Source: Deltaproteobacteria bacterium (GTDB taxonomy: Bacteria > Desulfobacterota > Desulfarculia > Adiutricales > Adiutricaceae). Taken from it: 64,000 bases of DNA. A program made the position numbers and the translations under genes. The first letter of the stretch is position 1, and the number at the start of each line of letters is the position of its first letter. This document shows positions 14,256 to 62,647 of this stretch, piece by piece. The stretch spans positions 13 to 64,012 of the forward strand of contig JAIRTO010000324.1 in NCBI GenBank assembly GCA_031254895.1, written 5' to 3'. A model generated the notes under the pieces. It made no database searches and was not told the origin of the DNA. It was given only the letters and a program-made list of their open reading frames with translations.

Positions 14256-15578
14256 ATGTTGCCATCATCTTTGATTAAAAAATGGATATTCGTGCTGATT
14301 CCACTCATCATCGTCGCCTTGGCGGCGGCCGTCATCGGCTACGGCATTCTGCGCAGCGTTCCTCAGACGCCGCCTCCGCCGCAAAAGGTGGTTTTGGCTG
14401 AAATCTCCTCGCAGGCCCCGATTTCGTCTTTGCGGGCCGTCGCTTTGATCTCCGCCGAGCAGAGCGTCGATCTGAAGCCTAGAGTCAGCGGCTATCTGAT
14501 AGGCAAGTACATTCAGGAAGGTCAAAAAGTCAAGGCCGGCGATCTTCTCTTCCTGATTGAGCAAGGCCAGTATGAAGCCGCCCAGTCTTCCGCTCAGGCC
14601 GATCTCGACTCGGCCCAGGCCCAGCTGGACTTGGCCGAGATCGAATTCGAGCGGGCCAAGGATCTCTATCTCAAGCGGTCCATGCCTAAAAGCGATTACG
14701 ACAAGGCCGTGGCTTCCCGGGATCAGGCTCAAGCCGCCGTCAAATCGGCTTCGGCTCGTCTGGACCAGGCGAAGCTGAACTACGGATACACCTTCATCAG
14801 GGCGCCTTTCGACGGTTTGGCTTCCGACACCCCCTTCTCGGTCGGCAGCTTCATTTCGCCGGAGGTGGGCGTGTTGGCCACGATTGTTTCCGTCGATCCG
14901 GTCGAGGCCATTTTCGGCTTGTCCGACACCCTCATGGCTCAAGTCCGTTCGGGTCAGGAAAGAAGCGGGCTTCCCGGGGGCAGTCTGGAAAACGTCAAGC
15001 CCCGACTTTTGCTCGGTCAGGACGTCTACTACGAGTTTGACGGCGAGTTCAGCTACGTCGCTCCGGAAGTGGACCGCAACACCGACACGATCAAATTCAA
15101 AGCCAAGTTCGCCAACCCGAAAAACGTTTTGGCCCCTGGCCAGTCGGTCATCGTGAGCCTGGAGCCCGTCGAGCCGCAAACAGTTTTGATCCTTCCTAAG
15201 GAAGCCCTCATGACCAGCGAAGGCGAAAGCTTCGTCTATCAGGCCGGGCCTGATCCTCGCGGCGGAGGCGGTCTGGTGGCCGTGCAGACGCCGGTCAAGA
15301 CAGGCGTCGAGTTCGCCGAGGGCTTCGAGATCCTCTCCGGACTGGCCGAAGGCGACAAAGTCATGGTCATGGGACTCATGTCCGGCGGCTCCAGGCTTAG
15401 ACCCGGTTCCCCGGTGGAAATAATCGGCGAAGCCGACGCGAAGCCGTCGGCGAACCAGGCCGCCGGCCAAGCGGACGGCGGCCCGGGCGCCTCCGAGGCC
15501 GTAGAGCCGACCGCCTCGGCGGCCGCCGCCCAAGTCGAGAGCGCTGGGGACGAAGCCGGTCAGGCGGAGGAAAAATAA
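14256..15578 (+). CDS. RND efflux periplasmic adaptor subunit (membrane fusion protein, AcrA/MexA family)
   Basis: 440 aa with an N-terminal TM anchor, a lipoyl/hairpin region (RVSGYLIGKYIQEGQKVKAGDLLFLIEQGQYEAA...AQLDLAEIEFERAKDLY) and an Ala/Glu-rich C-terminal tail. Its stop codon abuts the pump start (TAA ATG). Confidence 0.9.
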   Translation: MLPSSLIKKWIFVLIPLIIVALAAAVIGYGILRSVPQTPPPPQKVVLAEISSQAPISSLRAVALISAEQSVDLKPRVSGYLIGKYIQEGQKVKAGDLLFLIEQGQYEAAQSSAQADLDSAQAQLDLAEIEFERAKDLYLKRSMPKSDYDKAVASRDQAQAAVKSASARLDQAKLNYGYTFIRAPFDGLASDTPFSVGSFISPEVGVLATIVSVDPVEAIFGLSDTLMAQVRSGQERSGLPGGSLENVKPRLLLGQDVYYEFDGEFSYVAPEVDRNTDTIKFKAKFANPKNVLAPGQSVIVSLEPVEPQTVLILPKEALMTSEGESFVYQAGPDPRGGGGLVAVQTPVKTGVEFAEGFEILSGLAEGDKVMVMGLMSGGSRLRPGSPVEIIGEADAKPSANQAAGQADGGPGASEAVEPTASAAAAQVESAGDEAGQAEEK

Positions 15579-18500
15579 ATGTTGTCGCGTATTTTTATAG
15601 ATCGGCCGCGTTTCGCCATCGTCGTGGCTCTGGTGATCAGCATCGCCGGCGCCCTGGCTCTGATGCGACTGCCGGTCGAGCAGTTTCCCGACATAGTTCC
15701 GCCTGAGGTCAACATTCGGGCCATATATCCCGGAGCCAGCGCCGAGACGTTGGAAAGCACGGTGGCCCAGCCCATCGAAAGCGCCATGAACGGCATAGAC
15801 GGCATGCTCTACATGTCCAGCCAGTCGTCCAACAACGGCTCCTACAGTCTCACCGTGACTTTCGAGATCGGCTCCGACCCGGATCTGAACATGGTCAACG
15901 TGCAGAACCGTCTGAAAAAAGCCGAAGCTCTTCTGCCTCAGGAGGTCATTCGGCAGGGCGTCGACGTCGACAAGAGCACTTCCGGCTTTCTGAAGGCCTA
16001 CTCCTTCCATTCTCCGGGCGGAACCATCTCGGATCTGGACATGAGCGACTGGGTCAGCAACAACGTCGTCGACCCTCTGGCCAGAATTTCCGGCGTCGGT
16101 TCGATTAACTTCTTCGGTTCCGAATACAGCATGCGCATTTGGATGAATCCGGACGTGCTGGCTTCCCGAGGCTTGTCCCCCGCCGACATCATCGCCGCCT
16201 TGGGCTCTCAGAACATCCAAGCCGCCGTCGGCGAAGTCGGCGGCGCGCCCACTCCGCCCAATCAGGAGCTGCATTACAACCTGACGGCCACCGGACGACT
16301 GAGCACCCCCGAAGAGTTCGAAAGGATCATCATCAGGACCAATCCTGACGGGACAATCCTGCGTTTGGGCGACGTCTCCGAAGTGGTTTTGGATTCCAAC
16401 ACCTACGCTCCCACCGGCATCTACAAGGGACGCAATTCCGTCGGCATGATGCTGACTTCGTCGGCCGGCTCCAACGCCGTGGCCACGGCGGCCATGGTCG
16501 ACGCCGCTTTGGCGGACATAGAAAAGCGTTTTCCTCCCGACATGGAGGTCTTGCCCGTCTTCGACGCCACCGAGTTCGTCAGAAGCTCCATCCACGAGGT
16601 TCAGGAGACCATAGTCATCGCCATGGTTCTGGTCATCATGGTGGTTTATCTTTTTCTGGGCAGCTGGCGAGCCACTTTGATTCCCATGGTGGCCGTGCCC
16701 GTCTCTCTGGTGGGCACCTTCGCCGTTCTTCTGATCATGGGCTATTCGGCCAACACCATCTCTCTTTTGGCTTTGGTCTTGTCGGTGGGCATCGTCGTTG
16801 ACGACGCCATCGTCGTGGTGGAGAACGTCGAACGCGTCATGCGAGACGAGGGCTTGGGCCCAAGAGAGGCCAGCATAAAGGCCATGGGCCAGATTACCGG
16901 GGCCATCGTGGCCATCGCTCTGGTTCTCCTGTCGGTCTTCGTGCCCGTGGCCTTCATTCCCGGTCTCTCCGGCAAGCTTTATCAGCAGTTCGCCGTGACC
17001 ATTTCCGTCTCCATGCTCATCTCGGCGGTCAACGCCCTGACTCTCAGTCCGGCGTTGTGCGCCATCCTTCTCACCACCGGCCATCGCAAACCGTTCTTCC
17101 TCGTCCGCATCTTCCAAAATATGGTGAACAAGACCAGGGACAAATACCGCGCGCTGGTCGTCCTGCTTTTGAGACGGGCCGCCTTCGGTCTGGTCGTGGC
17201 CTGCTTCTGTCTCGGCGCGGCCATCTGGCTTCTTAAATCCACGCCGAGCGGCTTTTTGCCCGACGAGGACAAAGGCACTTTCATCATTCAGATAGGTCTG
17301 CCCGAAGGCTCGCCTCTCAACAAGACTAGAGAAATCCTGGTCAAGGCCGAGGAGCTCGTCTATGAGATAGAGGGCGTGGACAACATCATGGCCATTTTGG
17401 GCATCAACGTGGTCAACTTCAGCCTTCAGGACAACGCCGCCTTCATGTTCGTCGGCCTGGATCCTTACGACGAGCGAAGGACCCGGGAAACCCAGTTGGA
17501 CTACATCCTGAATCAGGCCAACATGAAGCTGGCTTCGATCATTGACGCCAGCTGCGTCTCCTTTTCTCTGCCCCCCATCATGGGGCTCGGTTCGGTCGGC
17601 GGCTTCGAGTTCGTGCTGGAGGATTTCGTCGGCCGACCGCCGTCGGAGCTGGCCCAGGAAGCCCAGAAATTCATTGGCGTGGCCATGCAGGATCCGGGCA
17701 TGCTCATGGCCTTCACCTTCTTCAACACCGACACTCCGGTGCTGAAGGTCGAGATAGACCGCGACAAGGCCATCCGCATGGGCGTCAACGTCAACGACAT
17801 CTTCGCCTCCATGCAGTTTTATTTGGGCAGCTATTACGTCAACGACTTCAACTACAAAGGCCGCAGCTGGCAAGTCAAGATCATGGGCGGGGCTCTGAGC
17901 CGCAAAAACATCGACGACATCTACGCCATCCATGTCCGCTCGAACAACGGCAGCATGGTGCCTTTGTCGTCTCTGGTCACCGTGGAGCTTTCCACCGGCC
18001 CGCAGAACATCACTCGCTACAACAACTACCGCAGCGCCGTCGTCATGGGCAGCGGCAAGCCCTGGCTGGGCACCGGCGTCGGCATAGAGGCCATGGAAAA
18101 CGCCGCTTTGAGCCTGCCTTCCGACATAGGCTACGAGTGGACCGGTTCGACCTATCAGGAAAAAGAATCGGCCGGTCAGACCTTTTCCCTGTTCGTCCTC
18201 TCCTTTTTGTTCGCCTATTTGTTTCTGGTGGCCCTCTATGAGAGCTGGACCATACCTTTGGGCGTCATCGTCTCAATCTCGGCGGCCATCTACGGATCCA
18301 TGCTGGCCGTCAAGCTGGCCAACCAGTCTTTGGGCCTGTACGTCCAGATAGGCATAGTCACCCTGATCGCTTTGGCCAGCAAGAACGCCATCTTGATCGT
18401 GGAGTTCGCCAAGGACGCCAGGCAGGACGGCGAGACGATCAAGGAGAGCGCGGCTTCCGGAGCCTTTTTGAGATTCCGGGCCGTCATCATGACCTCCATG

Positions 18501-18765: not shown

Positions 18766-18872
18766 CCGCCTGGCTGGTCGTCCGACATCCTGCGGCTGGC
18801 CGCTTGGCTGTCCGTTGGTTACCCGCTTGGCCAGCCGTTTGGCTGGTCAGTTAGCTGGCCGCTGGGCTGTCG
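18766..18872. repeat. Stutter array of tggctgg / ttggcc words
   Basis: gcctggctggtcg...gcggctggccgcttggctgtccgttgg...cgcttggccagccgtttggctggtcagttagctggccgctgggctgtcg. Confidence 0.7.
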
Positions 18873-19312: not shown

Positions 19313-19726
19313 ATGCGGATCGTCATTGTGGACAGGGAGCCTAATTTTTTGGCGCCTCTCATCTCGGATCTCGAACGCGAAGGCTTCGCGGTGACCGTGG
19401 TCGAGAACATATCCGGGGTTTTGTCCTTCATCAAGACCCAAAGCCTGCATTTTTTGGTGGCCGACAGCAACCTTTTGGTCGATCACTCTCTTGGGGCCGA
19501 GGTTCTCCGCCAGTCTCCGCTCAGCCGACTCATCGTCCTGGCCTCTCGGCCTTCTTTGCTGGGCATGATCGAGGCCATCAGCTGCGGCATCACGGATTAT
19601 TTTTCCCGCCAGCCGAGCAGTTTCGGACAGCTCGTGGACACGATTCTGGACGAGCGCGATCGTCTGATGCGCTGGCAATACGCCATCTTAAGCGAGACTC
19701 TGGGCCAGGGAGCCAAGATAGAATAG
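19313..19726 (+). CDS. Stand-alone receiver (REC)-like domain protein, divergent
   Basis: I start at ATG 19313 (MRIVIVDREPNF...). The layout is REC-like, with an Asp in FLVADSNLL and Ser in LIVLASRPS. The acidic pair is reduced to D-R-E, and the usual D-Y-L-x-K-P reads DYFSRQP. Confidence 0.65.
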   Translation: MRIVIVDREPNFLAPLISDLEREGFAVTVVENISGVLSFIKTQSLHFLVADSNLLVDHSLGAEVLRQSPLSRLIVLASRPSLLGMIEAISCGITDYFSRQPSSFGQLVDTILDERDRLMRWQYAILSETLGQGAKIE

Positions 19727-19829
19727 TTTTTTCCGGCCAAAAAAAAGCCTCCTTCGCCTGAAAAAACGTCGCCGCCTTTCCGAAAACAAGGCTTTTCTTT
19801 TCCAAGGCGCAAGCTTGCCAGGGGGGGCC

Positions 19830-22673
19830 ATGACCTTTGACGAAGACAGGTTGAACGAGCTATTGAACCGGGCCAGCCTTGATCTGGTCATGCTCTCGCA
19901 GGACGACCTCTTGGAGTTCAGCTCGCTTTTGGGGATGATGGAGGAGATTCGCGAAGCCTTCGCTCCTCTGGCCGGCGACGTCGCTCCAGACGAGGCCGCC
20001 TCCGGCCCTTCTTCTCAAGACGCCTCTTGGCCTCGACAGATCCTCGCCTCTCTGTCTTCCATTCTGGAGCTGGCCATCCTCGACGAAATGTCCGACCCTG
20101 ATCAAGGCGTGGAGCTTTTGAGCCAGGGACTGATTCTTTTGGACGAGTTGGCCCGCTGCCTCCCCGTAGAGGCGCCCTTTCAGGGCGACGCCGCCGGCTT
20201 TTTGAAGAAGGCGACCAAATTTCAGCAAGCCTCGATGGAAAAAATGGCGGCCGCCCTAAGCGACGACGGAACCGCCTCCTCCTCTCCCGACGATTTCTCT
20301 CTTTTTGGCTCTTCCTCCGAAACTTCCCCGCCATCTGAAAATCGGCTCTCGGACGATTCGTCGGCCGAACCGATCCGCTTAAGCGACTCGCCGTCAGGGG
20401 AAGCGTTCGACATTCCTTTGTCCGGCGGACAAGCGGCCGGGGGACAAGCGGTCGGGGGCCAGGCGGCCGAGTTCGGCGGCGGACGGCGCGAATCCGGCAA
20501 AGACTCTTTTCAGCCGCGCAAAAAAGGCGACGGTCTGGCCTTCATCGTGCCCACGCCCACGCAAGTTCGTCGGGATGTCTTGTTGTTGACTCAGAAGCTG
20601 ACGGTGGATTACTTCAAGTCCGATTTTATCGGGGCCGTGGAAGATCTACAGATGAAGCTGGTCAGCGTCGAGCAGAAAGCCGATCCGTGTTCGGCCATGT
20701 CCGAGACGCTGCCGCGCTTCCGGGCCATTCTGGGCGGCTTGTGCCTCTTGGATCTCGACGATCTGGCCAGACTCGCCGCCGACACCATCGGCCTCATCGA
20801 TTACGTCGTCGGCGAACAGGTTCCCCACACCACCGTCATCACCGACGTGTTGCTGAAGGCCTGTTCCTTCGTCATCGGCGGCCTGTCCACCCTGGTCATC
20901 AACCCCGACGGACGCAGCTGGTCCATCAATCCCAGTTGGACGAGCGAAGAGCTCGCCCAGCTTAGGGAAAATCTGTGGGCGGCTCGCCAAGGCATCCTGA
21001 CGGCGGCGCCTCAGCCGCCAGCCGCTCAGCCGGTGGCCGCGGCCTTGGGCAAGCCCAAAAAGCTGGGCGAAATTTTGGTCGAAAAGGGCCTCATCTCGGA
21101 AGGGGATTTGGGCGGTCTCATCCAAGCCCAGAAAACGGTCAGAAGCGTCAGGCTGGGCGAAATTCTGGTCAAGGAAAACCTAATTTCGGAACATGAGCTG
21201 GAAGAGGCCCTCAAGCGGCAGCAGGGCGAGGACAAGGGCCGACGCTTGGGCGAAATACTGGTCTCCATGGGTCTTCTGGAACACGAGCACATCGACAAGG
21301 CCTTGAAGATACAGGAAGGATTAAAAGAAACCAAACTTGGCGAAATCATCCTCAAACAGAAGATAGGCGCCCCTGAAAAGGTGGCCGCGGCTTTGCGCGA
21401 GCAGAAGCAAAGCGAGATGGCCGTGACCCCGGGCGCGGGGCTGGGGGGAGTGCAGACGGTCAAGGTGGAGACTTTAAAGCTCGACGGGCTCATCGATCTG
21501 GTCGGGGAGCTGGTCATAACCCAATCTCTCATCACTTCCAACGAATCCATCAAAGAGCTCAAAGAGCAAAAAATAATCAAAGATCTGGCTCAAGTTTCCC
21601 GCATCACCTCCGAATTGCAGCGAAACGCCATGAGTCTTCGGATGGTCCAGATCAACAACACCTTCCGAAAAATGGGCCGACTGGTCAGAGATTTGGCCCA
21701 TAAATTCGAAAAGGACGTGGAGTTTCAAACCATAGGCGAAGACACGGAGATCGACCGCAACATGGTCGAATCTCTCTACGATCCTCTGGTTCACATGATC
21801 CGAAACGCTCTCGACCATGGCCTGGAGATGCCCAAGGAGCGCTTGGCCAAAGGCAAGTCTCCCAAAGGCATGGTTCTTTTGAAGGCCTACCATCAAGGCG
21901 GAAACGTGGTCATAGAGCTCTCCGACGACGGCAACGGACTGGACCTCGACAAGACGCTGGCCAAGGCCGTGGAAAAAGGTTTCGTCCAGCCTGGAGAAAA
22001 TCTTTCTGAGGCGGCCATTCGCAACCTGATCTTTCAGCCCGGCTTCTCCACCACCGACAAAGTCACCGAGATCTCCGGGCGCGGGATCGGCATGGACGTA
22101 GTGAAAAAATCAATTGAAGTTTTGAGAGGCAAGGTCGATTTCGCCACGGCCCCCAACGAAGGCTCCACTTTCACCATACGTCTGCCCTTAACCTTAGCCA
22201 TAATTGATGGTATGATAGTGAGGGTTGGCGAGAATCAGTACATTTTGCCGACAATTTCCATCAATCAGTCCTTCAGGCCGAAGCCGGAAGAGTATTTCAC
22301 CGTCAAAAACCAGGGCGAGATGATCAAAGTGCGAGACAGCCTTCTGCCTTTGGTCAGACTCAACCGGCTGGTGAACGTTCAGGACGCCGTCTCCGATCCG
22401 TCCAGAGCTTTGGTGGTGGTCGTGGAGAACGAGGGCGAAAGACGCTGCCTCATGGTCGACGAGGTCGTCGGCAAGCAGGAAGTCGTCATCAAGTCTCTGG
22501 GCGAGCGCCTCAAATACGTCCGGACTCTGGCCGGCGGCACCATCCTCGGCGACGGCAGGGTGGGGCTGATTTTGGACGTCAACGGCTTGTTCGAAGCCGA
22601 AGAAGGCGGTCCTTCCCTAATCGCCGGAAGAGACTGTTTCGACGACGACGACTGGGGCATGGGACCGACCTGA
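19830..22673 (+). CDS. cheA: CheA-type chemosensory histidine kinase with an atypical N-terminus and four MshEN/T2SSE_N-like motifs
   Basis: Dimerisation region VKVETLKLDGLIDLVGELVITQS, N-box HMIRNALDHGLE, G1 DDGNGLD, G2 GRGIGMDVV and a C-terminal CheW-like domain (IIDGMIVRVGENQYILP...LMVDEVVGKQEVVIKSLG). I use ATG 19830; the ORF track starts at TTG 19815. Confidence 0.9.
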   Translation: MTFDEDRLNELLNRASLDLVMLSQDDLLEFSSLLGMMEEIREAFAPLAGDVAPDEAASGPSSQDASWPRQILASLSSILELAILDEMSDPDQGVELLSQGLILLDELARCLPVEAPFQGDAAGFLKKATKFQQASMEKMAAALSDDGTASSSPDDFSLFGSSSETSPPSENRLSDDSSAEPIRLSDSPSGEAFDIPLSGGQAAGGQAVGGQAAEFGGGRRESGKDSFQPRKKGDGLAFIVPTPTQVRRDVLLLTQKLTVDYFKSDFIGAVEDLQMKLVSVEQKADPCSAMSETLPRFRAILGGLCLLDLDDLARLAADTIGLIDYVVGEQVPHTTVITDVLLKACSFVIGGLSTLVINPDGRSWSINPSWTSEELAQLRENLWAARQGILTAAPQPPAAQPVAAALGKPKKLGEILVEKGLISEGDLGGLIQAQKTVRSVRLGEILVKENLISEHELEEALKRQQGEDKGRRLGEILVSMGLLEHEHIDKALKIQEGLKETKLGEIILKQKIGAPEKVAAALREQKQSEMAVTPGAGLGGVQTVKVETLKLDGLIDLVGELVITQSLITSNESIKELKEQKIIKDLAQVSRITSELQRNAMSLRMVQINNTFRKMGRLVRDLAHKFEKDVEFQTIGEDTEIDRNMVESLYDPLVHMIRNALDHGLEMPKERLAKGKSPKGMVLLKAYHQGGNVVIELSDDGNGLDLDKTLAKAVEKGFVQPGENLSEAAIRNLIFQPGFSTTDKVTEISGRGIGMDVVKKSIEVLRGKVDFATAPNEGSTFTIRLPLTLAIIDGMIVRVGENQYILPTISINQSFRPKPEEYFTVKNQGEMIKVRDSLLPLVRLNRLVNVQDAVSDPSRALVVVVENEGERRCLMVDEVVGKQEVVIKSLGERLKYVRTLAGGTILGDGRVGLILDVNGLFEAEEGGPSLIAGRDCFDDDDWGMGPT
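21060..21404 (+). other. Four tandem 24-residue MshEN/T2SSE_N-type motifs inside CheA (putative c-di-GMP binding modules)
   Basis: The motifs are KLGEILVEKGLISEGDLGGLIQAQ, RLGEILVKENLISEHELEEALKRQ, RLGEILVSMGLLEHEHIDKALKIQ and KLGEIILKQKIGAPEKVAAALREQ (aa 416-530 in ORF-track numbering), separated by 6-7 residues. They fit RLGxx(L/V/I)(L/V/I)xxG(L/V/I)(L/V/I)xxxxLxxxLxxQ as I recall it. Confidence 0.6.
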
Positions 22674-22754
22674 GCCGTCGCCTTTTAGAGCCAAAAAAAC
22701 CTGTCTTGGTCGTCGGCCCCTTTGGTTTTCCATCGGTCGACCGGAGACGGTCTT

Positions 22755-22890
22755 CATGGTCGCTTGATCGCATGGCAGCTTGATCGCATGGCCGCATGGT
22801 CGCTCGAACGCTGGCCGCTTTTCAGCCTTTTCGCTTCTTGCCGCTTGGCCGCTTGGCGGCTTGGCCGTTTGGCCGTTTTACGACGTTTCA
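22755..22890. repeat. Stutter arrays in the cheA-cheW spacer (gcttgatcgcatgg x2, ccgcttggc / ggccgtttt words)
   Basis: Read directly: ggtcgcttgatcgcatggcagcttgatcgcatggccgcatggtcgc ... ccgcttggccgcttggcggcttggccgtttggccgtttt. Confidence 0.7.
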
Positions 22891-22960
22891 TATTTGATCC
22901 TTTGCCAAAAAGCCATATTATTGTCGAAAAATGGGCCGCCAAAAAAGGCCGCCAAGCCAA

Positions 22961-23040
22961 GGCGACCAATTCTAGGCGACCGATTCTAGGCGACCGATTC
23001 TTGGCCGCCCAATTCTAGGCCGACCGATTGGCGGTCGGCC
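22961..23040. repeat. ggcgaccgattctag-type 14-15-bp tandem repeat (about 3 copies), ending in a perfect 9-bp palindrome GGCCGACCG-attgg-CGGTCGGCC
   Basis: ggcgaccaattctaggcgaccgattctaggcgaccgattcttggccgcccaattctaggccgaccgattggcggtcggcc. Confidence 0.75.
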
Positions 23041-23150
23041 GAAGTGACCGTAAAATACGGACGCGCGAAAGGCCGGACGACCTTTAAAGTTCCCTTCGGC
23101 CTCTTTATAAACCCTTTTTCGGATGACGTTTTAGTTTTTGGGTGTCGTCT

Positions 23151-23693
23151 ATGAGTCAGAGCCAAATAAACGAAGCCAGCAGTTTGTCGGTCGATCATTC
23201 ACAGGACATGAAATTTCTGCAGTTTGAGCTGGCCGGCGAATTCTACGGACTGGATATCCTTAAAATCATGGAAATCAACGGATTGATGGACATAACCGCC
23301 GTGCCCCAGACTCCTCAGTTCATGAAAGGTCTCATAAACCTGAGGGGGAAAGTCATTCCGGTCATCGATCTGCGGCTGAAGTTCGGCCTGCCGGAGGAAA
23401 CGTACTCCGAACGGACCTCCATAATCGTCATAGAGTTCAACACTCTGTCCGGGACCACCCATATGGGCATCGTGGTGGACAGGGTTTCCGAGGTCATAAC
23501 CATCAACAAAGCCGACATAGAGCCGGCTCCGGAATTCGGCAGCCGGCTGAAGAGCGAATACATCAAAGGCATGGCCAAGACCAAGACTCAGGTGCTCATC
23601 ATTTTGGACATAGATCTTATCTTGACCGACGAAGAGCTGACTTTCGGGCCGAGGGCCGAATTCGTCGAAGAAGAAAAGGCCGAAGACGCCTGA
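23151..23693 (+). CDS. cheW: Chemotaxis coupling protein CheW
   Basis: FLQFELAGEFYGLDILKIMEINGLMDITAVPQTPQFMKGLINLRGKVIPVIDLRLKFGL is canonical CheW. I use ATG 23151; a GTG at 23142 is also possible. Confidence 0.9.
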   Translation: MSQSQINEASSLSVDHSQDMKFLQFELAGEFYGLDILKIMEINGLMDITAVPQTPQFMKGLINLRGKVIPVIDLRLKFGLPEETYSERTSIIVIEFNTLSGTTHMGIVVDRVSEVITINKADIEPAPEFGSRLKSEYIKGMAKTKTQVLIILDIDLILTDEELTFGPRAEFVEEEKAEDA

Positions 23694-23802
23694 CCGCCCA
23701 ACACGCATTAGGACGCCGTTTTTCTTGTCTCGCGTTATGGAGTCGGACAAGATCGCTTTTTCGTCTTATTGAACCTGGCTGGCATTTTTGGGGGAGACAA
23801 TA

Positions 23803-24687
23803 GTGAGCGAAAGATTTCAACCAGGGGCTTCCCCTTTCAATCAGCCGGATCTGAGCGACGCCGAATACCAGACCATCGCGTCTTTCGTTCATAAGGCCAG
23901 CGGCATCAATCTTATGGACGGGAAGAAAGAGCTGGTTCGGGCCAGGCTGGCCAAGCGCATCAGTCAGCTGCAGATGAAGAATTTCAAGTCCTATTTCCAG
24001 CACGTCATGACCGACTCCACCGGAGACGAGCTCGTCTTTCTTTTGGACGCCTTGGCCACCAATCTGACCAGCTTCTGGCGCGAACCCCAACATTTCGATT
24101 TTATGACCAAGACTTTCGTTCCGGAGCTGGAAGCCAGACGGCGCCGTCCCGGCGGCGGCGGACCGAGGATGCGAATCTGGAGCGCCGCCTGCTCTTCCGG
24201 CGAAGAGCCGTACACCATAGCCATGGTGGTTTTGGAGAAGAGTCCCTACTTCGCCCAAGGCGGAGATTTCAGAATATTGGCCACGGATCTGTCGACCAAG
24301 GTCTTGAACGTCGCCAAAAGAGGCCAATACGGCCCGGAGAGCGTGAAAAACATACCTCCGGCTTCCCTCCACGCCTTCATGACCAAGAGTCCGGCCGAAA
24401 AAGGCGGCTTCACCTACGTCGTCAAGCCCGAGGTGAGAAGGATCATCTCTTTCCGGCGCTTCAACCTGATGGAGCCCATGCCTTTCAAAGGACCGATGGA
24501 TCTGATCTTCTGCCGCAACGTCATGATTTATTTCGATCGCGAGACCATAGCCAGGCTGGTGGAGAAGTTTCACAACCTCTTGGAAGTCGGGGGCTATCTA
24601 TTCATCGGGCATTCGGAGAGTCTGTCCGGGTTGACCCACAATTTTCAGTACGTGGCTCCCTGCATCTACAGGAAGGTCAATCGCTGA
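23803..24687 (+). CDS. cheR: Chemotaxis protein methyltransferase CheR
   Basis: N-terminal helical CheR domain (DAEYQTIASFVHKASGINL...), NLTSFWREPQHFDF and the SAM-binding segment RIWSAACSSGEEPYTIAM. I prefer GTG 23803 (GGGGGAG RBS) over TTG 23788. Confidence 0.9.
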   Translation: MSERFQPGASPFNQPDLSDAEYQTIASFVHKASGINLMDGKKELVRARLAKRISQLQMKNFKSYFQHVMTDSTGDELVFLLDALATNLTSFWREPQHFDFMTKTFVPELEARRRRPGGGGPRMRIWSAACSSGEEPYTIAMVVLEKSPYFAQGGDFRILATDLSTKVLNVAKRGQYGPESVKNIPPASLHAFMTKSPAEKGGFTYVVKPEVRRIISFRRFNLMEPMPFKGPMDLIFCRNVMIYFDRETIARLVEKFHNLLEVGGYLFIGHSESLSGLTHNFQYVAPCIYRKVNR

Positions 24688-24866
24688 CGATTTCGCCTGT
24701 TTTGGCCGGCGTGCGGCGGCGTTTTTTTTCTTGGCTTTTGGCGCCTTGAAAAGATTTTCGAGCGAGGCGCCCTCTGAAGATGACGGTCTTCGGCAGACGG
24801 TTTTTGAAGGATGGTTTTTGAAAGATGGTTTTGGAAAGAAGGTCTTTAACGGCCGTCTTCGTTTAA

Positions 24867-25997
<1,131 letters not shown>

Positions 25998-26009
25998 GGG
26001 AGAGACGCG

Positions 26010-26843
26010 ATGGTCGCCGCCAACACGAAAAGGGGGCCGTCCAAGGCCCCGAAAACGGCCAAAGAAACGGAATCCGTCGGAGACTTCGCCGACTTGGGAA
26101 AGGCATCTCAAAGGTCCTCGGGTCTGCGGGAGTCGGCGGCGGCAAAGGAAGCGACGGCGGCAAAGAGGTCGGCGGCGGCAAGGGGGGCCAGGACTTCAAG
26201 ATCTCCAGGAACTTCAAAAACTTCAAAGACGTCAAAAACTGAAAAAAGTTCCGGGGGCGACGGTTTCGTCGCTCCGCTTCCGTCAGGCGGAATTGTCCCT
26301 TCAGCCACCTGTCTGGATCAGGCCAGCGGTTTGTACCATCCTCAGCATTTCAACCTCTCGCTCAGTTACGAGTTCAGCCGGATGGAAAGGACCGAGAAGC
26401 CGTTGGGACTAATTTTGGTGAGGTACCGCGAGCCCGAAAACAGCGTTCTGCAAAAATTGGCCGTTTTCTTGCGCGGCGCTTTGCGTCCTTTGGATCTGGC
26501 CGCCCGCTTGTCCGAGGAGGAAGTGGCCATATTGATACCCGAAGCGGACAAGGACAAGGCTTTGAGACTTCTGGCCGCTCTAGGGCGCGAGTTCGGTCCG
26601 AAAGGGAGCCTTTGCGGGCCGGCCGTCGTTTTTGGGGCGGCTCTGGCCAAGCCTTATCAGGGGGGAGGTCCGGAGGATCTGGTGCGGCGGGCTCGGGAAA
26701 ACCCCGGCGACGCGGAGGCGGCGGCGGCCAGGATTTCAGCCGTTTCCAGTCCCTGGTCGGAGGCGGACACGGCTTTAGCCGGAGAGGAAAGAGACAGTCT
26801 TTTCAGCGGCTTCGCCGCTTTGACGGGGCGGACTCGCTCTTAG
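26010..26843 (+). CDS. Degenerate GGDEF-like domain protein (SEEEV instead of GGDEF/GGEEF; RxxD I-site retained) with a low-complexity Lys/Ser/Thr-rich N-terminus
   Basis: GAGGGAGAG RBS, with the start 12 nt after the cheB stop. LDQASGLYHPQHF aligns with DxLTGLxNRRxF. ALRPLDLAARLSEEEVAILIPEAD aligns residue for residue with RxxDxxxRxGG(D/E)EFxxLLPxT. The upstream Mg-binding DxD / GHxxGD segment is absent. Confidence 0.65.
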   Translation: MVAANTKRGPSKAPKTAKETESVGDFADLGKASQRSSGLRESAAAKEATAAKRSAAARGARTSRSPGTSKTSKTSKTEKSSGGDGFVAPLPSGGIVPSATCLDQASGLYHPQHFNLSLSYEFSRMERTEKPLGLILVRYREPENSVLQKLAVFLRGALRPLDLAARLSEEEVAILIPEADKDKALRLLAALGREFGPKGSLCGPAVVFGAALAKPYQGGGPEDLVRRARENPGDAEAAAARISAVSSPWSEADTALAGEERDSLFSGFAALTGRTRS

Positions 26844-55627: not shown

Positions 55628-56554
55628 ATGACCAGCGGGCAGACCAAAAATCTCATCTTCAAAATCGTTGCCGGCATGGCGGCCGCCAGCGTTCTCGCGA
55701 TCGTCGCGGCTATGGCCGCGACCCTCTACGTTCAATCCCGCCCGGCTCTGACTCGTTTCGGCTTCGTCAATTTTCTGACCTCGACCAGCTGGAACTACGG
55801 TCAAGAGGTCTTCGGGGCGGCCAGACCTCTGTTCGGGACGTTCGCCAGCGCCTTATTGGCCCTGATCGTGGCCGTACCGGCGGCTTTGGGCATAGCCGTT
55901 TTTTTGACCGAGATTTGTCCCTCCAAACTGCGAGGCGTCATCGCTGCGGCTCTGGAGCTTCTGGCGGCCATTCCCAGCATCATCTACGGCATGTGGGGAC
56001 TGTTCATCCTGGCTCCGGCTTTGGAGAAGTTCGTTCAGCCGCTGGTCGGGGAGACTTTGGGGCGACTGCCTTTGATAGGCTCGTTCTTTCAGACCAAGCT
56101 GGCCGGAGGGGTCAATCTCTTCACCGCCTCAATGATTCTCGCGATCATGATCGTTCCTTTCATCAGCGGCATCGCCCGCGAAGCCATGGCTCAGGTCCCG
56201 CCGATGCTGAAAGAGTCGTCTTACGCCTTGGGGGCCACCCGCTGGGAGACGGTTCGCCGGGTGGTCGTTCCTTACGTCAAAACGGCCCTGGCGGGCGGAA
56301 TAGTCATGGCCATGGGCCGGGCTCTGGGAGAGACCATGGCCGTGGCCTACGTCATCGGCAACCGCCACGCTCCCTTGGAGTCCATTTTTTCGCCTTACGT
56401 GACCATCACCTCCGTCATGGCCAACGAATTCAACGAGGCCGGCGGTCTGCAGCTGTCGGCCTTGTTTTCTTTGGCCTTTTTTCTCTTCGCGGCCAATTTT
56501 CTGGCTTTGACCCTGGCCAAACGGCTTTTGGGCGGAAAAAAGTGGACCATCTAA
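55628..56554 (+). CDS. pstC: Phosphate ABC transporter permease PstC
   Basis: 308 aa with 6 TM helices and the EAA-loop region ISGIAREAMAQVPPMLKESSYALGATRWETVRRVVVP. Confidence 0.93.
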   Translation: MTSGQTKNLIFKIVAGMAAASVLAIVAAMAATLYVQSRPALTRFGFVNFLTSTSWNYGQEVFGAARPLFGTFASALLALIVAVPAALGIAVFLTEICPSKLRGVIAAALELLAAIPSIIYGMWGLFILAPALEKFVQPLVGETLGRLPLIGSFFQTKLAGGVNLFTASMILAIMIVPFISGIAREAMAQVPPMLKESSYALGATRWETVRRVVVPYVKTALAGGIVMAMGRALGETMAVAYVIGNRHAPLESIFSPYVTITSVMANEFNEAGGLQLSALFSLAFFLFAANFLALTLAKRLLGGKKWTI

Positions 56555-56583
56555 AGAGCAGGAAACTGAAAAATCTCGTGGCC

Positions 56584-57387
56584 ATGACTCTGGCCACGTT
56601 GTGCGCGGCCGCCGGGTTGGCTCTGCTGTTCGTGATCCTCTACGACGTTTTGGTCGAGGGCCTGGGCGCCTTGAAGCTCAGGCTCTTCACCCAAGATCCG
56701 GCCCCGCCCAACCTCGCCGACGCCGGCGGGCTGCGGGGCGCCTTTTTGGGTCAGGGGCTCCTGACTCTGGTCGCCGCCGCCGTCGGCGTCCCCGCCGGAG
56801 TCATGGGGGGCACCTTTCTGGCCGAATACGGCCGAAACAGCCGGATATGCCGATTGATCAGTGCCTTGAGCGACATGGCCGTCTCCATACCCTCCATCGT
56901 CATAGGGGCGTTCGCCTACGCCGTCCTCGTCAAACCCATGGGCGGGTTCAACGGCTGGGCCGGAGCGGCGGCTTTGGCCATCATCATCCTCCCGATAATC
57001 CTGCGAACCACGGAAGAGATGCTGAACATCGTGCCCTGGGAGCTGAGGGAAGCGGCTTTCGCTTTGGGGGCTCCGCAGCATAAGGTGATAATCGGCATCG
57101 TCTGGCGCTCGGCCAAGAGCGGCCTCTTCACCGGGGCGCTTTTGGCCATAGCCAGGGTGGCCGGGGAGACGGCCCCGCTGTTGTTCACCTCCTTCAACAG
57201 CAATTTTTTTAAGCTGAATCTCTCGGAAGCCGTGCCGTCCATAACCGTCAGCATATATCAGTACGCGGCCTCTCCCTACGAGAGTTGGACGGAAATGGCC
57301 TGGGCGGCCGCGTTCGTGGTCACCGTCTTCGTTTTGTTGCTGAATCTCGTCGGTCGGGCGGCGCTGAAATTCAAGAAAGTCGGCTGA
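56584..57387 (+). CDS. pstA: Phosphate ABC transporter permease PstA
   Basis: This is the C-terminal part of ORF-track 55915..57387. It reads [23 protein letters not shown]..., with EAA loop [31 protein letters not shown]. The start is ATG 56584 or GTG 56578. Confidence 0.9.
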
Positions 57388-57394
57388 GGCGAAC

Positions 57395-58150
57395 ATGGAA
57401 GATCTGTTGGAAGTCAAAAATTTGAGTTTTTTCTATGGCGCCGATCAGGCCTTGAAGGACGTGACTCTGCCGATCAGAAAAAACAGCATCACCTCGCTCA
57501 TCGGTCCTTCCGGCTGCGGCAAGACGACGCTTCTGCGCTGTTTCAACAGGATGCACGATCTTTACCCCAAAAACCGCTACGCAGGAGAGATCCTCATGGC
57601 CGGGCGGAACATCTTGAGCGACGGGGTGGACGTCTTGAAGCTCCGAAACGCCATGGGCATGGTCTTTCAAAAACCAACCCCCTTTCCCATGAGCGTCTTC
57701 GACAACGTCGCCTACGGTCTGAGGCTGAAAAGCGTCCGGAACATGAGCGCTCTAAGGGAGAAGGTGGAAAAGGCCCTGCGTCAGGCGGCCGTTTGGGACG
57801 AGGTCAAAGATCGGCTTCACCGGAACGCCGCCGGACTCTCCGGCGGGCAGCAGCAGAGACTGGTCATCGCCCGGACTCTGGCCGTGGAGCCAAAGGTCAT
57901 TCTCTTCGACGAGTCCACCAGCGCCTTGGATCCCATTTCCGCCAAAAAAATCGAAGAGCTGATGGCGGAGCTCAAAAAAGAAGTCACCATCGTGGCCGTC
58001 ACCCATAACATGCAGCAGGCGGCTCGTATTTCGGACTACACCGCCCTGATGTACCTAGGCTCCTTGGTGGAATTCGACGAGACGGGAGTCATCTTCACCA
58101 AGCCCAAGCATAAGATGACCGAAGACTACGTCACCGGCCGCTTCGGCTGA
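57395..58150 (+). CDS. pstB: Phosphate ABC transporter ATP-binding protein PstB
   Basis: Walker [10 protein letters not shown], signature LSGGQQQRL and Walker B ILFDEST; 251 aa. Confidence 0.96.
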
Positions 58151-58224
58151 GCCGGCTGAGCAGGTCTTTTTCCGGCGGCGGCGCGACGGCTTTTGGTTTT
58201 TGTTAGGATTCTGCCGTTCGATTC

Positions 58225-58320
58225 TGTTCGCCTTAGGCCGAATTTTGGCCGACTCCGCGCCAATTTGTTCGCCTTAGGCCGAATTTGGTCGACTCCGCGC
58301 CAATTTGTTGGTCTTGGCCG
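58225..58320. repeat. Tandem direct repeat of 40-41 bp, about 2.3 copies, in the pstB-phoU spacer
   Basis: tgttcgccttaggccgaattttggccgactccgcgccaatt at 58225-58265, tgttcgccttaggccgaatttggtcgactccgcgccaatt at 58266-58305, then a partial copy. Confidence 0.9.
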
Positions 58321-58400
58321 GATTTTTATTCAAATTTTCTCGCCTTTGCCGCTTTGCTCGCCTTAGTTTTCTCAGCCTTCGAAAAAAAAGGGGAAGGAAA

Positions 58401-59081
58401 ATGGCTCCTTTGGAAAGTCAGTTGAGCGTCATTCGGTCCAAGGTCGCGGCCATGGGGCTGGCGGCTTCCGAAATGTTCGATCAAGCCGTCCAGTCATTGC
58501 TGAACTCGGATCATAACCTGGCCAGGGGAGTCATCGAGCGCGACTCCGAAGTGGACGGACTGGAAAACGAGATCGAGGGCTTGTGCTTGAAGTTTTTGGC
58601 CTTGAAGGCCCCTAAGGCCCAGGAGCTCCGCTACGCCGTGGCCGCGACCAGACTCATCAGCGACATAGAACGGATAGCCGATCACGCCGCCGTTCTCGGC
58701 CGGGAGAGCTTGAACCGGCGTCTTTGGCCGATTCTTTCGACTTTGCCCGGCTTTAGCGACATGGGTCGTCTGGCCGGGGACATGGTTCGAAAAGCCGTGG
58801 ATAGTTTTTTGTCTTCAGATGATCTATCGTATCTGGAAATATGTCGGCAAGACAAAAAGGTGGGCGAACGTCAGAGGGAATTGAACGAGGCCTTGGCGGC
58901 CAAGGTGGCCAAGGAGCCGGAAAAGGCTCCGGACATCGTCTCTCTCGTCAACATCGTCAGGCGCATGGAAAGAACGGCCGATCACGCCAAAAACGTCGCC
59001 GTCATGGTTCCCTACATCACTAAAGGTCTCTTGCTGCGTCACAATCCGGAGGACGGCGTCGATGCTGATTATGATGATTGA
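58401..59081 (+). CDS. phoU: Phosphate signalling complex protein PhoU
   Basis: Two PhoU repeats (ARGVIERDSEVDGLENEIE... and ...RMERTADHAKNVA). I use ATG 58401 with a GGGGAAGG RBS; the ORF-track extension runs into the 41-bp repeats. Confidence 0.9.
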   Translation: MAPLESQLSVIRSKVAAMGLAASEMFDQAVQSLLNSDHNLARGVIERDSEVDGLENEIEGLCLKFLALKAPKAQELRYAVAATRLISDIERIADHAAVLGRESLNRRLWPILSTLPGFSDMGRLAGDMVRKAVDSFLSSDDLSYLEICRQDKKVGERQRELNEALAAKVAKEPEKAPDIVSLVNIVRRMERTADHAKNVAVMVPYITKGLLLRHNPEDGVDADYDD

Positions 59082-59751
59082 AGATGAAGCCGCTCTGAGG
59101 GAGGTCATCGAGTACCGCCTCAATCGGGAGGGCTATCAGGTGGCTTCCTTCGACAACGCCAACGACGCCTTGATCGCCATCGAGGATTGCCCGCCGGATC
59201 TGATTTTATTGGATCTCATGCTGCCCGGCCTTCAGGGGCTGCAGTTTTTGGACATCCTGCGCCAGCGAGACCAGCGCACCCCGGTCGTCGTCATCTCGGC
59301 CAGAACTTCCGAAGAGGACGTCATCCGGGCTTTGGAGCGCGGCGCGGACGATTATCTGCCCAAACCCTTCAGCGTGAAGCTTCTGGAGACGAAGGTCAAA
59401 GTGGCCTTGCGTCGGAGCTCCGGCGAAGAGACGGTTCCGGGAGGTCTCTTGTCCAGCGGAGGGGTGGTCGTCGATCTGGGCGGACACAAGGCGACCATCG
59501 ACGACAAGGAGATCCAGCTGACCCAAAAAGAGTTCGATCTTCTGGTTCTCTTCATCAGAAAGCCCGGCAAGGTTTTTACCAGAAACCAGCTTCTGAACGT
59601 CATTTGGGGCTATGAAAACGACGTCAACAGCCGAACCGTCGACGTCCACATGGCCATGCTCCGCAAGAAGCTGGCCGACAAGGGCCGTTACATCAGAACG
59701 TTGCCGAAGATAGGCTACCTCTGGGAGGTCAGGCCAGGCGAAGCCAAATGA
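59062..59751 (+). CDS. phoB: OmpR/PhoB-family response regulator
   Basis: REC domain (MMIEDEAALRE, LILLDLMLPG, DDYLPKPF) plus a winged-helix domain (LTQKEFDLLVLFIRKPGKVFTRNQLL...VDVHMAMLRKKL). It overlaps the phoU stop; alternative ATGs lie at 59071 and 59074. Confidence 0.88.
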   Translation: MLIMMIEDEAALREVIEYRLNREGYQVASFDNANDALIAIEDCPPDLILLDLMLPGLQGLQFLDILRQRDQRTPVVVISARTSEEDVIRALERGADDYLPKPFSVKLLETKVKVALRRSSGEETVPGGLLSSGGVVVDLGGHKATIDDKEIQLTQKEFDLLVLFIRKPGKVFTRNQLLNVIWGYENDVNSRTVDVHMAMLRKKLADKGRYIRTLPKIGYLWEVRPGEAK

Positions 59752-61823: not shown

Positions 61824-62212
61824 TTCGTAGATTTTCGCAATCGGCTTTTGATATGCCGGAGACCGGCGATATTGGCCTATTTTCGTTTCGGTTCTGCTGA
61901 AGATGGAAAGCTGTTGAGAGATTCAAAAAAGATTTTTCCTTCGGCAGCTGACATTGTTCCATTGGCGTCGCCTCGCTCGGAGGCCGGTCAGCCGTTAGCC
62001 GTCACCAGTCGCCAGTAGCCAGTCTCTAGCCTCCAAACCCTAGTTTCTAGTCTCTAACCCCTTTTCTCCCGTCACGCCTTCCTCCTCGGCCAGTCCTTTC
62101 CGCTGGCGGCAATAAATCCCAAAATATCCCCAACTATCCCTATTTTCTGTATATCACCCAGAAAAAGACGTCTCCGTTCGGGCTATTATTCTTCTGACCA
62201 GGTTCAGTTTCA

Positions 62213-62400
62213 GACGCGAGCCGACGCGAGCCGACAGAGCCGACCGAGCCGACCGAGTCGACCGAGCCGCATGAGTCAACCGAGTCGAACGAGTCGGTCG
62301 AGCCAACCGAGCTGACTGAGCCTGTTGAGCCGGCTGAGCCGAACCGAGCGAGCGAACAAACAGAACAGACAGAACATGAAGACAAACAGAGCAGACAGGA
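62213..62400. repeat. Stutter arrays (gaccgagcc-type 9-nt words, then acagaacag words)
   Basis: gcgagccgacgcgagccgacagagccgaccgagccgaccgagtcgaccgagccgc...gagtcgaacgagtcggtcgagccaaccgagctgactgagcc...caaacagaacagacagaacatgaagacaaacagagcagacagg. Confidence 0.8.
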
Positions 62401-62507
62401 CTTACATAACCGACTTAGCCGAACGAGGTAAAAGTGAACAGCTTATAAATTTTATCGGTCAGCAAATTCCGGTTAGTAAAATTCTCGAACCGAAATGCGC
62501 CGCCAAA

Positions 62508-62525
62508 CTTTACAACTATTTTACC
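62508..62525 (+). promoter_or_regulatory. Pho-box candidate CTTTACA-ACTA-TTTTACC upstream of pstS
   Basis: It has the same 7-4-7 architecture and TTTAC(A/C) half-sites as the pstC box, and lies 123 bp upstream of the pstS ATG. Confidence 0.45.
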
Positions 62526-62647
62526 TGGTCTTAAAAGCCATTTGACCCTGAAGGCATAAGATAGTCGCAACTTCAAGCCGCTATCGTCCGGCTGTCAAAA
62601 ATATGACGCCTTTTGTGGCGTCCGAAATCAACCTGCGAGGTATTTAC

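Follow-up and report, generated by a model that had tools for sequence, protein, structure and literature searches.

A chemosensory operon of six genes was analysed in a 64,000-nucleotide stretch of contig JAIRTO010000324.1 from a Deltaproteobacteria bacterium; this whole stretch is referred to here as the window. The kinase CheA of this operon carries four tandem MshEN motifs and a histidine-free version of its phosphotransfer domain (pseudo-Hpt), the accompanying CheY-like protein is predicted to be a pseudo-receiver and the GGDEF-fold protein that closes the operon is predicted to be catalytically dead; the kinase core, CheB and CheR are canonical. This operon, restricted to Adiutrix-related bacteria and conserved under purifying selection, appears to be undescribed. 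Our preferred interpretation, held tentatively and with a confidence a little short of even, is that cyclic di-GMP (c-di-GMP) enters the pathway through the MshEN motifs, that CheA drives no phosphorelay in cis and that output relies on contacts between proteins or on trans-phosphorylation. The six genes are as follows.

19313..19726, + strand: REC-like pseudo-receiver gene (Pfam Response_reg 21.7 bits, short of the 30.2-bit gathering score).
19830..22673, + strand: cheA, 947 amino acids (aa) (Pfam H-kinase_dim, HATPase_c and CheW).
23142..23693, + strand: cheW (Pfam CheW 127 bits).
23788..24687, + strand: cheR (Pfam CheR 195 bits and CheR_N 48 bits).
24978..25997, + strand: cheB (NCBIfam PRK00742 433 bits, against a cut-off of 293).
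26010..26843, + strand: degenerate GGDEF-like gene (Pfam GGDEF 33.9 bits, a partial match to profile positions 57-150 of 161).

This gene order had been proposed from the letters of the stretch alone (the sequence-only reading), and all six open reading frames (ORFs) were found in that order and at those positions on the + strand. Each of the six frames was intact. Residues of CheA are numbered on the 952-aa ORF starting at 19815; the CheA start was placed at Met6 of this ORF (nt 19830), which agrees with the 947-aa database protein P0001. The regions of CheA were located as follows.

19830..20189, + strand: domain A, N-terminal and helical (aa 6-125), conserved in 20 orthologues.
20577..20999, + strand: pseudo-Hpt with the P1 fold (aa 255-395), from hhalign and from AlphaFold2 (AF2) with Foldseek; Arg303 lies at nt 20721-20723.
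21060-21131, + strand: MshEN motif 1 (aa 416-439).
21150-21221, + strand: MshEN motif 2 (aa 446-469).
21243-21314, + strand: MshEN motif 3 (aa 477-500).
21333-21404, + strand: MshEN motif 4 (aa 507-530).
21453..22601, + strand: CheA core P3-P4-P5 (Pfam H-kinase_dim 47, HATPase_c 58 and CheW 85 bits).

In a canonical CheA, the P1 domain accepts phosphate on a histidine (His48 in Escherichia coli) that is supported by Lys51, His67 and Glu70. Pfam detected no Hpt domain in the CheA of the window, and a profile of the P1-like region gave only a weak match to PDB sequences (CheA3 P1 at an E value of 0.32). As these searches were too weak, the P1 fold was established by hhalign and by a fold search. 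The region aligned to canonical CheA P1 with an hhalign probability of 94.4% (E value of 9e-8), and the alignment columns placed Arg303 at His48, Leu at Lys51, Ala at His67 and Ile at Glu70. The AF2 model of CheA had a mean confidence (pLDDT) of 80 overall and of ∼90 in the pseudo-Hpt. Its top Foldseek matches in the PDB were CheA P1 structures (2lp4, 3kyi, 1i5n, 8c5v, 2ld6 and 1tqg), with target-normalised template-modelling (TM) scores of 0.67 to 0.78 for five of them; 3kyi is the structure of the CheA3 P1. Residues 255-395 were conserved among the 20 full-length CheA orthologues without a conserved His. Analysis of the His48 column across 79 family members detected Arg in 64, Lys in 10, Ser in 2, Gln in 1 and His in 2 (Arg or Lys in 94%). 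Leu306 was considered as the residue of this column and was rejected, since hhalign places Arg303 there. The register is supported by P0142 (RSFHSLLGG) and P0050 (YFHSLLAG), which keep a His in the His48 column; these two proteins look like intermediates because Lys51 and Glu70 are also absent from both. The proposal that P1 lacks its phospho-acceptor His was therefore upheld, as alignment revealed no ordinary Hpt His, and CheA is predicted to be incapable of phosphorylation at the canonical P1 site.

The NCBIfam CheA model PRK10547 matched across the kinase core with 375 bits. All of the ATP-binding boxes were present (N, DPLVHMIRNALDHG; G1, DDGNG; F, FQPGFST; G2, GRGIGMD), and their key residues were invariant in the 20 orthologues. 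Domain A gave no convincing match to Pfam, Hpt or PDB sequences and was weakly similar to N-terminal extensions of other deltaproteobacterial MshEN-CheAs (hhalign 44%, E value of 2e-4). The protein ends in an acidic tail, DDDDWGM (aa 943-949; window 22641-22661), often followed by a second SW, and Trp947 and Met949 were invariant in the 20 orthologues. C-terminal xWxxF tethers recruit CheR and CheB to receptors; the CheA tail is reminiscent of these tethers but is located on the kinase.

The interval between P1 and P3, in which Pfam found no P2 or CheY-binding domain, is filled by the MshEN repeats. These consist of four 24-residue units (21060..21404) spaced by 6, 7 and 6 residues, constituting two putative c-di-GMP-binding modules. 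The NCBIfam model NF053729 ('cyclic di-GMP-binding domain, MshE-related', c-di-GMP_motif) matched CheA in three stretches with 62.5 bits, against a cut-off of 38. A phmmer search of this region against the PDB retrieved Thermus thermophilus PilF (6f8l, E value of 3e-18), PilB (5tsg, 3e-8), Vibrio cholerae MshEN (5htl, 5e-7) and the c-di-GMP-binding domain of PilF (8pfa, 4e-5), so that the earlier claim of four MshEN motifs at the place of P2 was borne out by matches to c-di-GMP-binding domains. The published motif is RLGxx(L/V/I)(L/V/I)xxG(L/V/I)(L/V/I)xxxxLxxxLxxQ (PMC5013675). A relaxed form of this pattern was fitted by motifs 1 and 3; at the central Gly, motif 2 has an Asn and motif 4 a Lys, and position 12 of motif 4 is a Gly. 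Across the 20 orthologues the motifs were near-invariant, with no change at their G, L and Q positions, and the duplication could still be seen in the DNA as repeats at 90- and 93-nt spacing. In the AF2 model of this part, a unit made up of a short and then a long helix occurred four times; MshEN structures were not among the 50 Foldseek matches listed for the combined model, in which P1 matches dominate. On this evidence the MshEN region probably binds c-di-GMP. As the modules are real, stand at the place of P2 and show a constraint equal to that of the kinase core (ratios of nonsynonymous to synonymous substitution [dN/dS] of 0.06 to 0.08), a c-di-GMP input is the natural reading, and the earlier suggestion that c-di-GMP is an input to the pathway is likely to be correct with respect to MshEN.

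A profile of the REC-like family matched the CpxR receiver with an E value of 2e-6, followed by PmrA and NtrC. The protein consists of a stand-alone REC fold with a conserved C-terminal RLxRWQ helix. In the family, the position of CheY D13 is an invariant Arg, D12 varies among Asp, Gly, Ser and Glu, either Asp or Glu stands at D57, T87 is mostly Ala and K109 is an invariant Arg; the corresponding residues in the window are Arg8 (D13), Asp51 (D57), Ala77 (T87) and Arg99 (K109). R8, R99 and R120-W121-Q122 were invariant in 17 orthologues. These substitutions predict that the protein cannot accept phosphate in the canonical way. On a metagenome contig (L036), small receivers with an RLxRW helix directly adjoin His-bearing MshEN-CheAs and keep the canonical DD, D, T and K residues. 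As these canonical cousins share the helix and the neighbours, the pseudo-receiver was assigned, as a degenerate form, to the CheY subfamily accompanying MshEN-CheAs, a point missing from the sequence-only reading. Two further loci, L037 (2975-4220, encoding P0142) and L038 (encoding P0050), have a His in the His48 column of CheA beside degenerate receivers. A joint loss of the CheA His and the receiver residues was considered and found to be unsupported, since these His-retaining lineages already have degenerate receivers.

The core of the GGDEF-like protein (aa ∼100-235) has a GGDEF fold (AF2 pLDDT of 86.7 and predicted TM score [pTM] of 0.78), and its top Foldseek matches were the GGDEF domains of WspR, GcbC and PleD (E values of 4e-9 to 1e-7). 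Three features were located in this protein.

26484-26495, + strand: RPLD (aa 159-162), five residues before SEEEV.
26511-26525, + strand: SEEEV, the former GG(D/E)EF motif (aa 168-172).
26769-26813, + strand: C-terminal peptide TALxxxE(K/R)(D/N)SLFxGF (aa 254-268), from orthologue alignments.

The absence of a receiver domain, the SEEEV motif and the RxxD site, which is intact in the window as RPLD followed by five residues and SEEEV, agree with what had been read from the letters, and homology searches detected both of the domains claimed there, MshEN with NF053729 above its cut-off and GGDEF as the partial Pfam match. The GG(D/E)EF position differed in nearly every orthologue, and a deletion of ∼12 residues removes the DxDxFKxxND segment. 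The protein is accordingly predicted to be catalytically dead and unable to make c-di-GMP. Of 21 orthologues, 14 retain RxxD and 7 have GxxD, SxxD or GxxE in its place; in an alignment with PleD, the equivalent of Arg390 appeared to be an Ala. Of the two independent c-di-GMP-binding modules that had been suggested, the MshEN region of CheA was thus retained, and the case for the GGDEF-like protein was weakened by the loss of RxxD in one-third of the orthologues and by its core being the least constrained domain. The basic N-terminal 95 residues were variable and the start codon is uncertain, with JGI calling a product of only 170 aa. The C-terminal peptide was better conserved than the I-site and was duplicated in the orthologue at L033. 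The CheY-binding C-terminus of CheZ (...DSLGF) resembles this peptide, and for this reason the peptide may dock a receiver fold.

CheB and CheR are canonical adaptation enzymes, with Pfam and NCBIfam scores well over the cut-offs. The CheB receiver retains the DD, D, S and K residues and the esterase retains its Ser/His/Asp motifs; both enzymes are as intact as had been supposed. No methyl-accepting chemotaxis protein (MCP) was detected with phmmer at an E value of ≤10 in the 64-kb window or in 33 related loci. Similarly, no separate Hpt was detected in the window or, in the 33 loci, at a distance of up to 10 kb from the cluster, and no canonical CheY was detected in the window or in the 33 loci. 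Pfam scans of 20 other window proteins detected no MCP, CheY, GGDEF, EAL or HD-GYP domain, and the only other receiver protein of the window was a PhoB-type regulator at 59062-59751. The absence of an MCP and of a canonical CheY from the 64 kb, as previously proposed, was borne out.

A scan of one genome per species detected 32 loci encoding a CheA with the pseudo-Hpt and one fragment. The loci were derived from termite-gut 'Deltaproteobacteria bacterium' metagenome-assembled genomes, from Candidatus Adiutrix sp. and from the complete genome CP026657.1 (strain Smac51). The synteny proposed as a check was present: the order REC-like, CheA, CheW, CheR, CheB, GGDEF-like was kept in ∼30 species-level genomes, wherever the contig was long enough. 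An MFP-RND efflux pair upstream and a GT2 and DnaJ-like pair downstream were frequent flanks, which differ in the Adiutrix/Smac51 branch; as the Smac51 flanks differ, the six genes move as a unit between contexts. In CP026657.1 (L028; 1-8350 and 16476-17681), the operon is flanked by genes for HdrA-like, MvhD and MTHFR proteins (Wood-Ljungdahl associated), an IS200-type transposase and a nitronate monooxygenase-like protein.

An exhaustive hidden Markov model search of 1.84 billion representative proteins retrieved only eight representatives with more than 100 bits, the next score being 72 bits, and the 28 lower-scoring matches retrieved were ordinary CheAs with FRxxH(S/T)xKG. This distribution indicated that the pseudo-Hpt is confined to a narrow clade. 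In a search with CheA, the clade scored ≥830 bits and was followed, at ≤491 bits, by relatives with a His-bearing Hpt and mostly one MshEN pair. One of these, P0053, is encoded in a flagellar cluster (cheR, cheD, REC, cheX, cheB, REC, cheA, cheZ, flgM, flagellin and flgK); the gene of another, P0056, belongs to a multi-CheA cluster that also encodes an MCP and a PilZ protein. None of the 120 CheA relatives among the matches listed had a precomputed Response_reg domain. In other lineages there are CheAs, P0170 being an example, that combine two functional Hpt domains with as many as four MshEN motifs. The L036 contig (6577-22319) encodes, side by side, one CheA-REC hybrid and no fewer than three CheAs; an MCP, a PilZ protein, CheD and the RLxRW-helix receivers are encoded there as well. 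In L038 (10001-12583; P0050), the gap between cheA and cheR is too short for a cheW, and a FliJ-like gene lies ∼6 kb upstream.

Selection was examined by the Nei-Gojobori method, for which dS values were 1.4 to 2.2 and hence near saturation, so that the dN/dS values are approximate. The lowest class comprised P3 (0.05), CheB (0.05), P5 (0.06), MshEN (0.06 to 0.08) and CheW (0.07), followed by the REC-like protein (0.09), P4 (0.10) and the pseudo-Hpt (0.12 to 0.18). Higher values were obtained for domain A (0.28 to 0.34), the GGDEF-like core (0.35 to 0.41), the CheA linker (0.44 to 0.53) and the GGDEF-like N-terminus (0.7 to 1.2), and the GGDEF-like protein was the loosest component of the operon. 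The purifying selection on the REC-like protein and the pseudo-Hpt indicated that these pseudo-domains are maintained.

Several other features of the window were recorded. Short tandem repeats occupy the cheA-cheW and cheR-cheB spacers as well as the spacer 5' of the REC-like gene, and these repeat-bearing spacers differ strongly in length between related loci, with the cheA-cheW spacer ranging from 48 to ∼830 bp.

18794-18869: tandem repeat upstream of the REC-like gene, unit GGCTGGCCGCTT, 6 copies.
22762-22803: tandem repeat in the cheA-cheW spacer, 16-nt unit, 2.6 copies.
22840-22875: tandem repeat in the cheA-cheW spacer, unit GCCGCTTG, 4.5 copies.
22960-23029: tandem repeat in the cheA-cheW spacer, unit AGGCGACCGATTCT, 4.9 copies.
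24795-24847: tandem repeat in the cheR-cheB spacer, unit AGATGGTTTTTGAA, 3.8 copies.

Promoter and terminator scans gave results at the level of chance, and an Rfam scan of the window gave no match. A 1222-aa ORF on the - strand (14265-17933) is antisense to the MFP/RND efflux genes, has a low-complexity translation and has a third-position GC content of 0.59, whereas that of the RND gene is 0.80. Most likely this ORF is not a gene but a stop-free artefact that arises where coding DNA is rich in G+C. A phosphate-uptake regulon block is present at 55628-63649, and its PhoB/PhoR-like pair, beside pst genes, represents the sole other two-component genes of the window.

57395-58150: PstB-like protein.
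59062-59751: PhoB-type regulator.
59748-61823: sensor kinase with an sCache-like domain.
62603-63649: phosphate-binding protein.

Comparison with known systems located the operon more precisely. The Wsp system (WspA-F and WspR) has an operon MCP, two CheWs, a CheA-REC hybrid and a REC-GGDEF output protein with an active GGEEF motif. The operon resembles Wsp in being of che type, in having CheB followed by a GGDEF-fold protein and in WspR being the best structural match of that terminal protein; it differs in the absence of an MCP, a second CheW and a CheA-REC hybrid and in a terminal protein that has neither a receiver nor an active site. The label 'Wsp-like' given by the sequence-only reading could not be sustained, since the gene order also differs, with one CheW, no operon MCP and no CheA receiver, and the located His-bearing relatives are MshEN-CheAs of flagellar and multi-CheA clusters.

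A fusion of MshEN to CheA was already listed by Wang et al. in 2016 (PMC5013675). The operon CheA is like those proteins in having MshEN motifs between the N-terminal phosphotransfer region and P3 and in its normal P3-P4-P5, but it has four motifs instead of a pair, no P2, an additional domain A and a P1 without a phospho-His; its closest MshEN-CheA relatives (P0053, P0056 and P0146-P0186) retain FRxxH(S/T)xKG. Given the 2016 listing and lineages such as that of P0170, MshEN in CheA, even doubled, is not new. The earlier statement that the architecture is undescribed therefore does not hold for the fusion (PMC5013675), whereas the conserved operon with its triple catalytic loss does appear to be undescribed. 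Literature searches on Smac51, on Adiutrix chemotaxis and on experimentally studied pseudo-Hpt CheAs returned nothing relevant.

The Xpt domains of ChpA in the Pil-Chp system of Pseudomonas aeruginosa are likewise non-phosphorylatable Hpt-fold domains of a CheA homologue (PMC12632253), but in ChpA they are accompanied by a receiver and by several Hpt domains that function, whereas the sole Hpt-like domain of the operon CheA is dead. The pseudo-receiver can be compared with the Cle proteins of Caulobacter, which are c-di-GMP-binding CheY-like proteins (PMC5677366, PMC7382256). It shares with Cle proteins and with ShkA REC1 a small CheY fold, a C-terminal extension and a c-di-GMP-linked motility or chemosensory context; unlike in Cle, the RLxRWQ extension lacks the DRR ... 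(R/K)RxxD motif. REC1 of ShkA is an example of a c-di-GMP-binding pseudo-receiver. The terminal protein resembles the degenerate GGDEF receptors PelD, PopA and SgmT in its destroyed GG(D/E)EF motif and, in the window, in an RxxD at the canonical distance, and differs from them in that RxxD is not conserved across orthologues, DxDxFKxxND is deleted and the C-terminal SLFxGF peptide is present.

In the proposed mechanism, the operon would have been derived, specifically in this lineage of termite-gut bacteria, from a che operon in which MshEN already stood between P1 and P3 of CheA. The His-to-Asp step of its own relay would be disabled on both sides, by the pseudo-Hpt and the pseudo-receiver, with a dead GGDEF protein closing the operon. 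P3-P4-P5 and CheW would dock to unlinked MCPs, to which we infer that the operon CheA is coupled, and CheR and CheB would adapt these receptors. Binding of c-di-GMP to the tandem MshEN linker would set the conformation or activity of the CheA core. Output would then proceed through protein-protein contacts of the pseudo-Hpt, the pseudo-receiver and the GGDEF-like protein and not through phosphotransfer from CheA's own P1, while any phosphoryl flow, for example to CheB, would come in trans. A phospho-independent output by such contacts is plausible rather than probable. The Xpt domains of ChpA are non-phosphorylated and have been proposed to be scaffolds, and ChpB is not thought to be phosphorylated (PMC12632253); this precedent supports contact signalling through retained pseudo-domains.

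A number of observations weigh against this mechanism. No partner or target of the pseudo-domains emerged, and the negative results for an MCP and a separate Hpt hold for the window and the 33 loci. The central Gly is not kept in MshEN motifs 2 and 4, and MshEN-like domains that fail to bind c-di-GMP are known, among them that of XpsE (PMC5013675); our literature search found no c-di-GMP binding test or other experimental study of any MshEN-CheA. The dN/dS values are approximate, owing to near-saturated dS. Finally, the ATP boxes of P4 are invariant and the CheB receiver has a full set of phospho-acceptor residues, which suggests that phosphoryl transfer still matters somewhere.

This last point favours a split kinase, in which an active P4, tuned by c-di-GMP through MshEN, would phosphorylate a P1 or Hpt encoded elsewhere (a second CheA or a P1-P5 protein). 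Phosphate would reach CheB from this trans P1, leaving the pseudo-Hpt and pseudo-receiver as mere docking or regulatory elements. This explanation was considered less likely than the preferred one but a strong rival to it. Precedents exist in CheA4 with CheA3 of Rhodobacter sphaeroides and in CheA-short with CheA-long of E. coli, and the operon CheA resembles such split or truncated kinases in having a competent P3-P4-P5 core without a phosphorylatable P1 of its own. The invariant N, G1, F and G2 boxes and the canonical, tightly constrained CheB receiver (dN/dS of 0.05) are in keeping with transfer in trans, and the FliJ-like gene near one family locus hints at flagella and hence at other che genes. 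Known split kinases, however, simply lack P1 and have a known trans P1, whereas the operon CheA keeps a folded, conserved pseudo-P1 that is retained, with the pseudo-CheY, under purifying selection; searches of the window and of the 33 loci, up to 10 kb from the cluster, found neither a trans P1 nor a separate Hpt. P4 is also somewhat less constrained (0.10) than P3 and P5 (0.05 to 0.06). An alternative for which we see only a small chance is that the dead Hpt, mostly with Arg or Lys at His48, and the dead CheY, with Arg at D13 and Asp or Glu retained at D57, constitute a constitutive mimic of the phosphotransfer complex, gated by receptor state and by c-di-GMP on MshEN, with the GGDEF-like protein and its SLFxGF peptide as a downstream adaptor. 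If true, the kinase of a chemoreceptor array would have been turned into a second-messenger sensor that works independently of phosphorylation, and chemosensory signalling would proceed with no His-Asp relay.

The remaining explanations were judged to be still less probable. A rewired Wsp-type pathway would sense c-di-GMP twice, through MshEN of CheA and the I-site of the terminal GGDEF protein, instead of producing it. Receptor function is known for degenerate GGDEF domains whose I-site is intact (PMC10118264), the window protein and 14 of 21 orthologues have RxxD and, five residues further on, a degenerate motif, and WspR GGDEF domains are the best structural matches. This pathway is nevertheless improbable: RxxD is absent from 7 of 21 orthologues in the least constrained domain of the operon, the PleD Arg390 equivalent appears to be an Ala, the MCP and second CheW are missing, and the His-bearing CheA relatives that were located belong to flagellar and multi-CheA clusters, with no precomputed Response_reg among the 120 listed. 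A modified cis phosphorelay using a relocated residue is very improbable. One candidate is the clade-specific His629 in RDLAHKFEK (aa 627-633; window 21693-21713) at the start of P4, which was present in 46 of 51 clade members and had no equivalent in the outgroup CheAs examined; five members have N, Q or G instead, and the residue lies inside the kinase domain instead of on a mobile substrate domain, and we know of no precedent for CheA autophosphorylation on such a residue. The combined loss of three catalytic sites and the nearly neutral evolution of the GGDEF-like N-terminus and CheA linker (dN/dS of 0.5 to 1.2) could also be the marks of a decaying, functionless chemotaxis remnant in a symbiont lineage. 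The selection data make such a relic hardly credible, with dN/dS values of 0.05 to 0.18 for the CheA domains, CheW, CheB and pseudo-receiver, six intact frames in the same order in ∼30 species and many invariant residues within the pseudo-domains.

Known links between c-di-GMP and chemotaxis lie either downstream of the kinase (YcgR, MapZ-CheR and Cle proteins) or at the output (Wsp). That c-di-GMP acts directly on a CheA is a prediction made in 2016 on the basis of domain architecture (PMC5013675). The operon represents an extreme and naturally simplified case of this architecture, in which MshEN is doubled and tightly conserved and a dead P1 and a dead CheY are under selection. It raises two testable questions: whether c-di-GMP may control the kinase of a receptor array and whether an array of CheA, CheW, CheR and CheB may signal without a His-Asp relay of its own.

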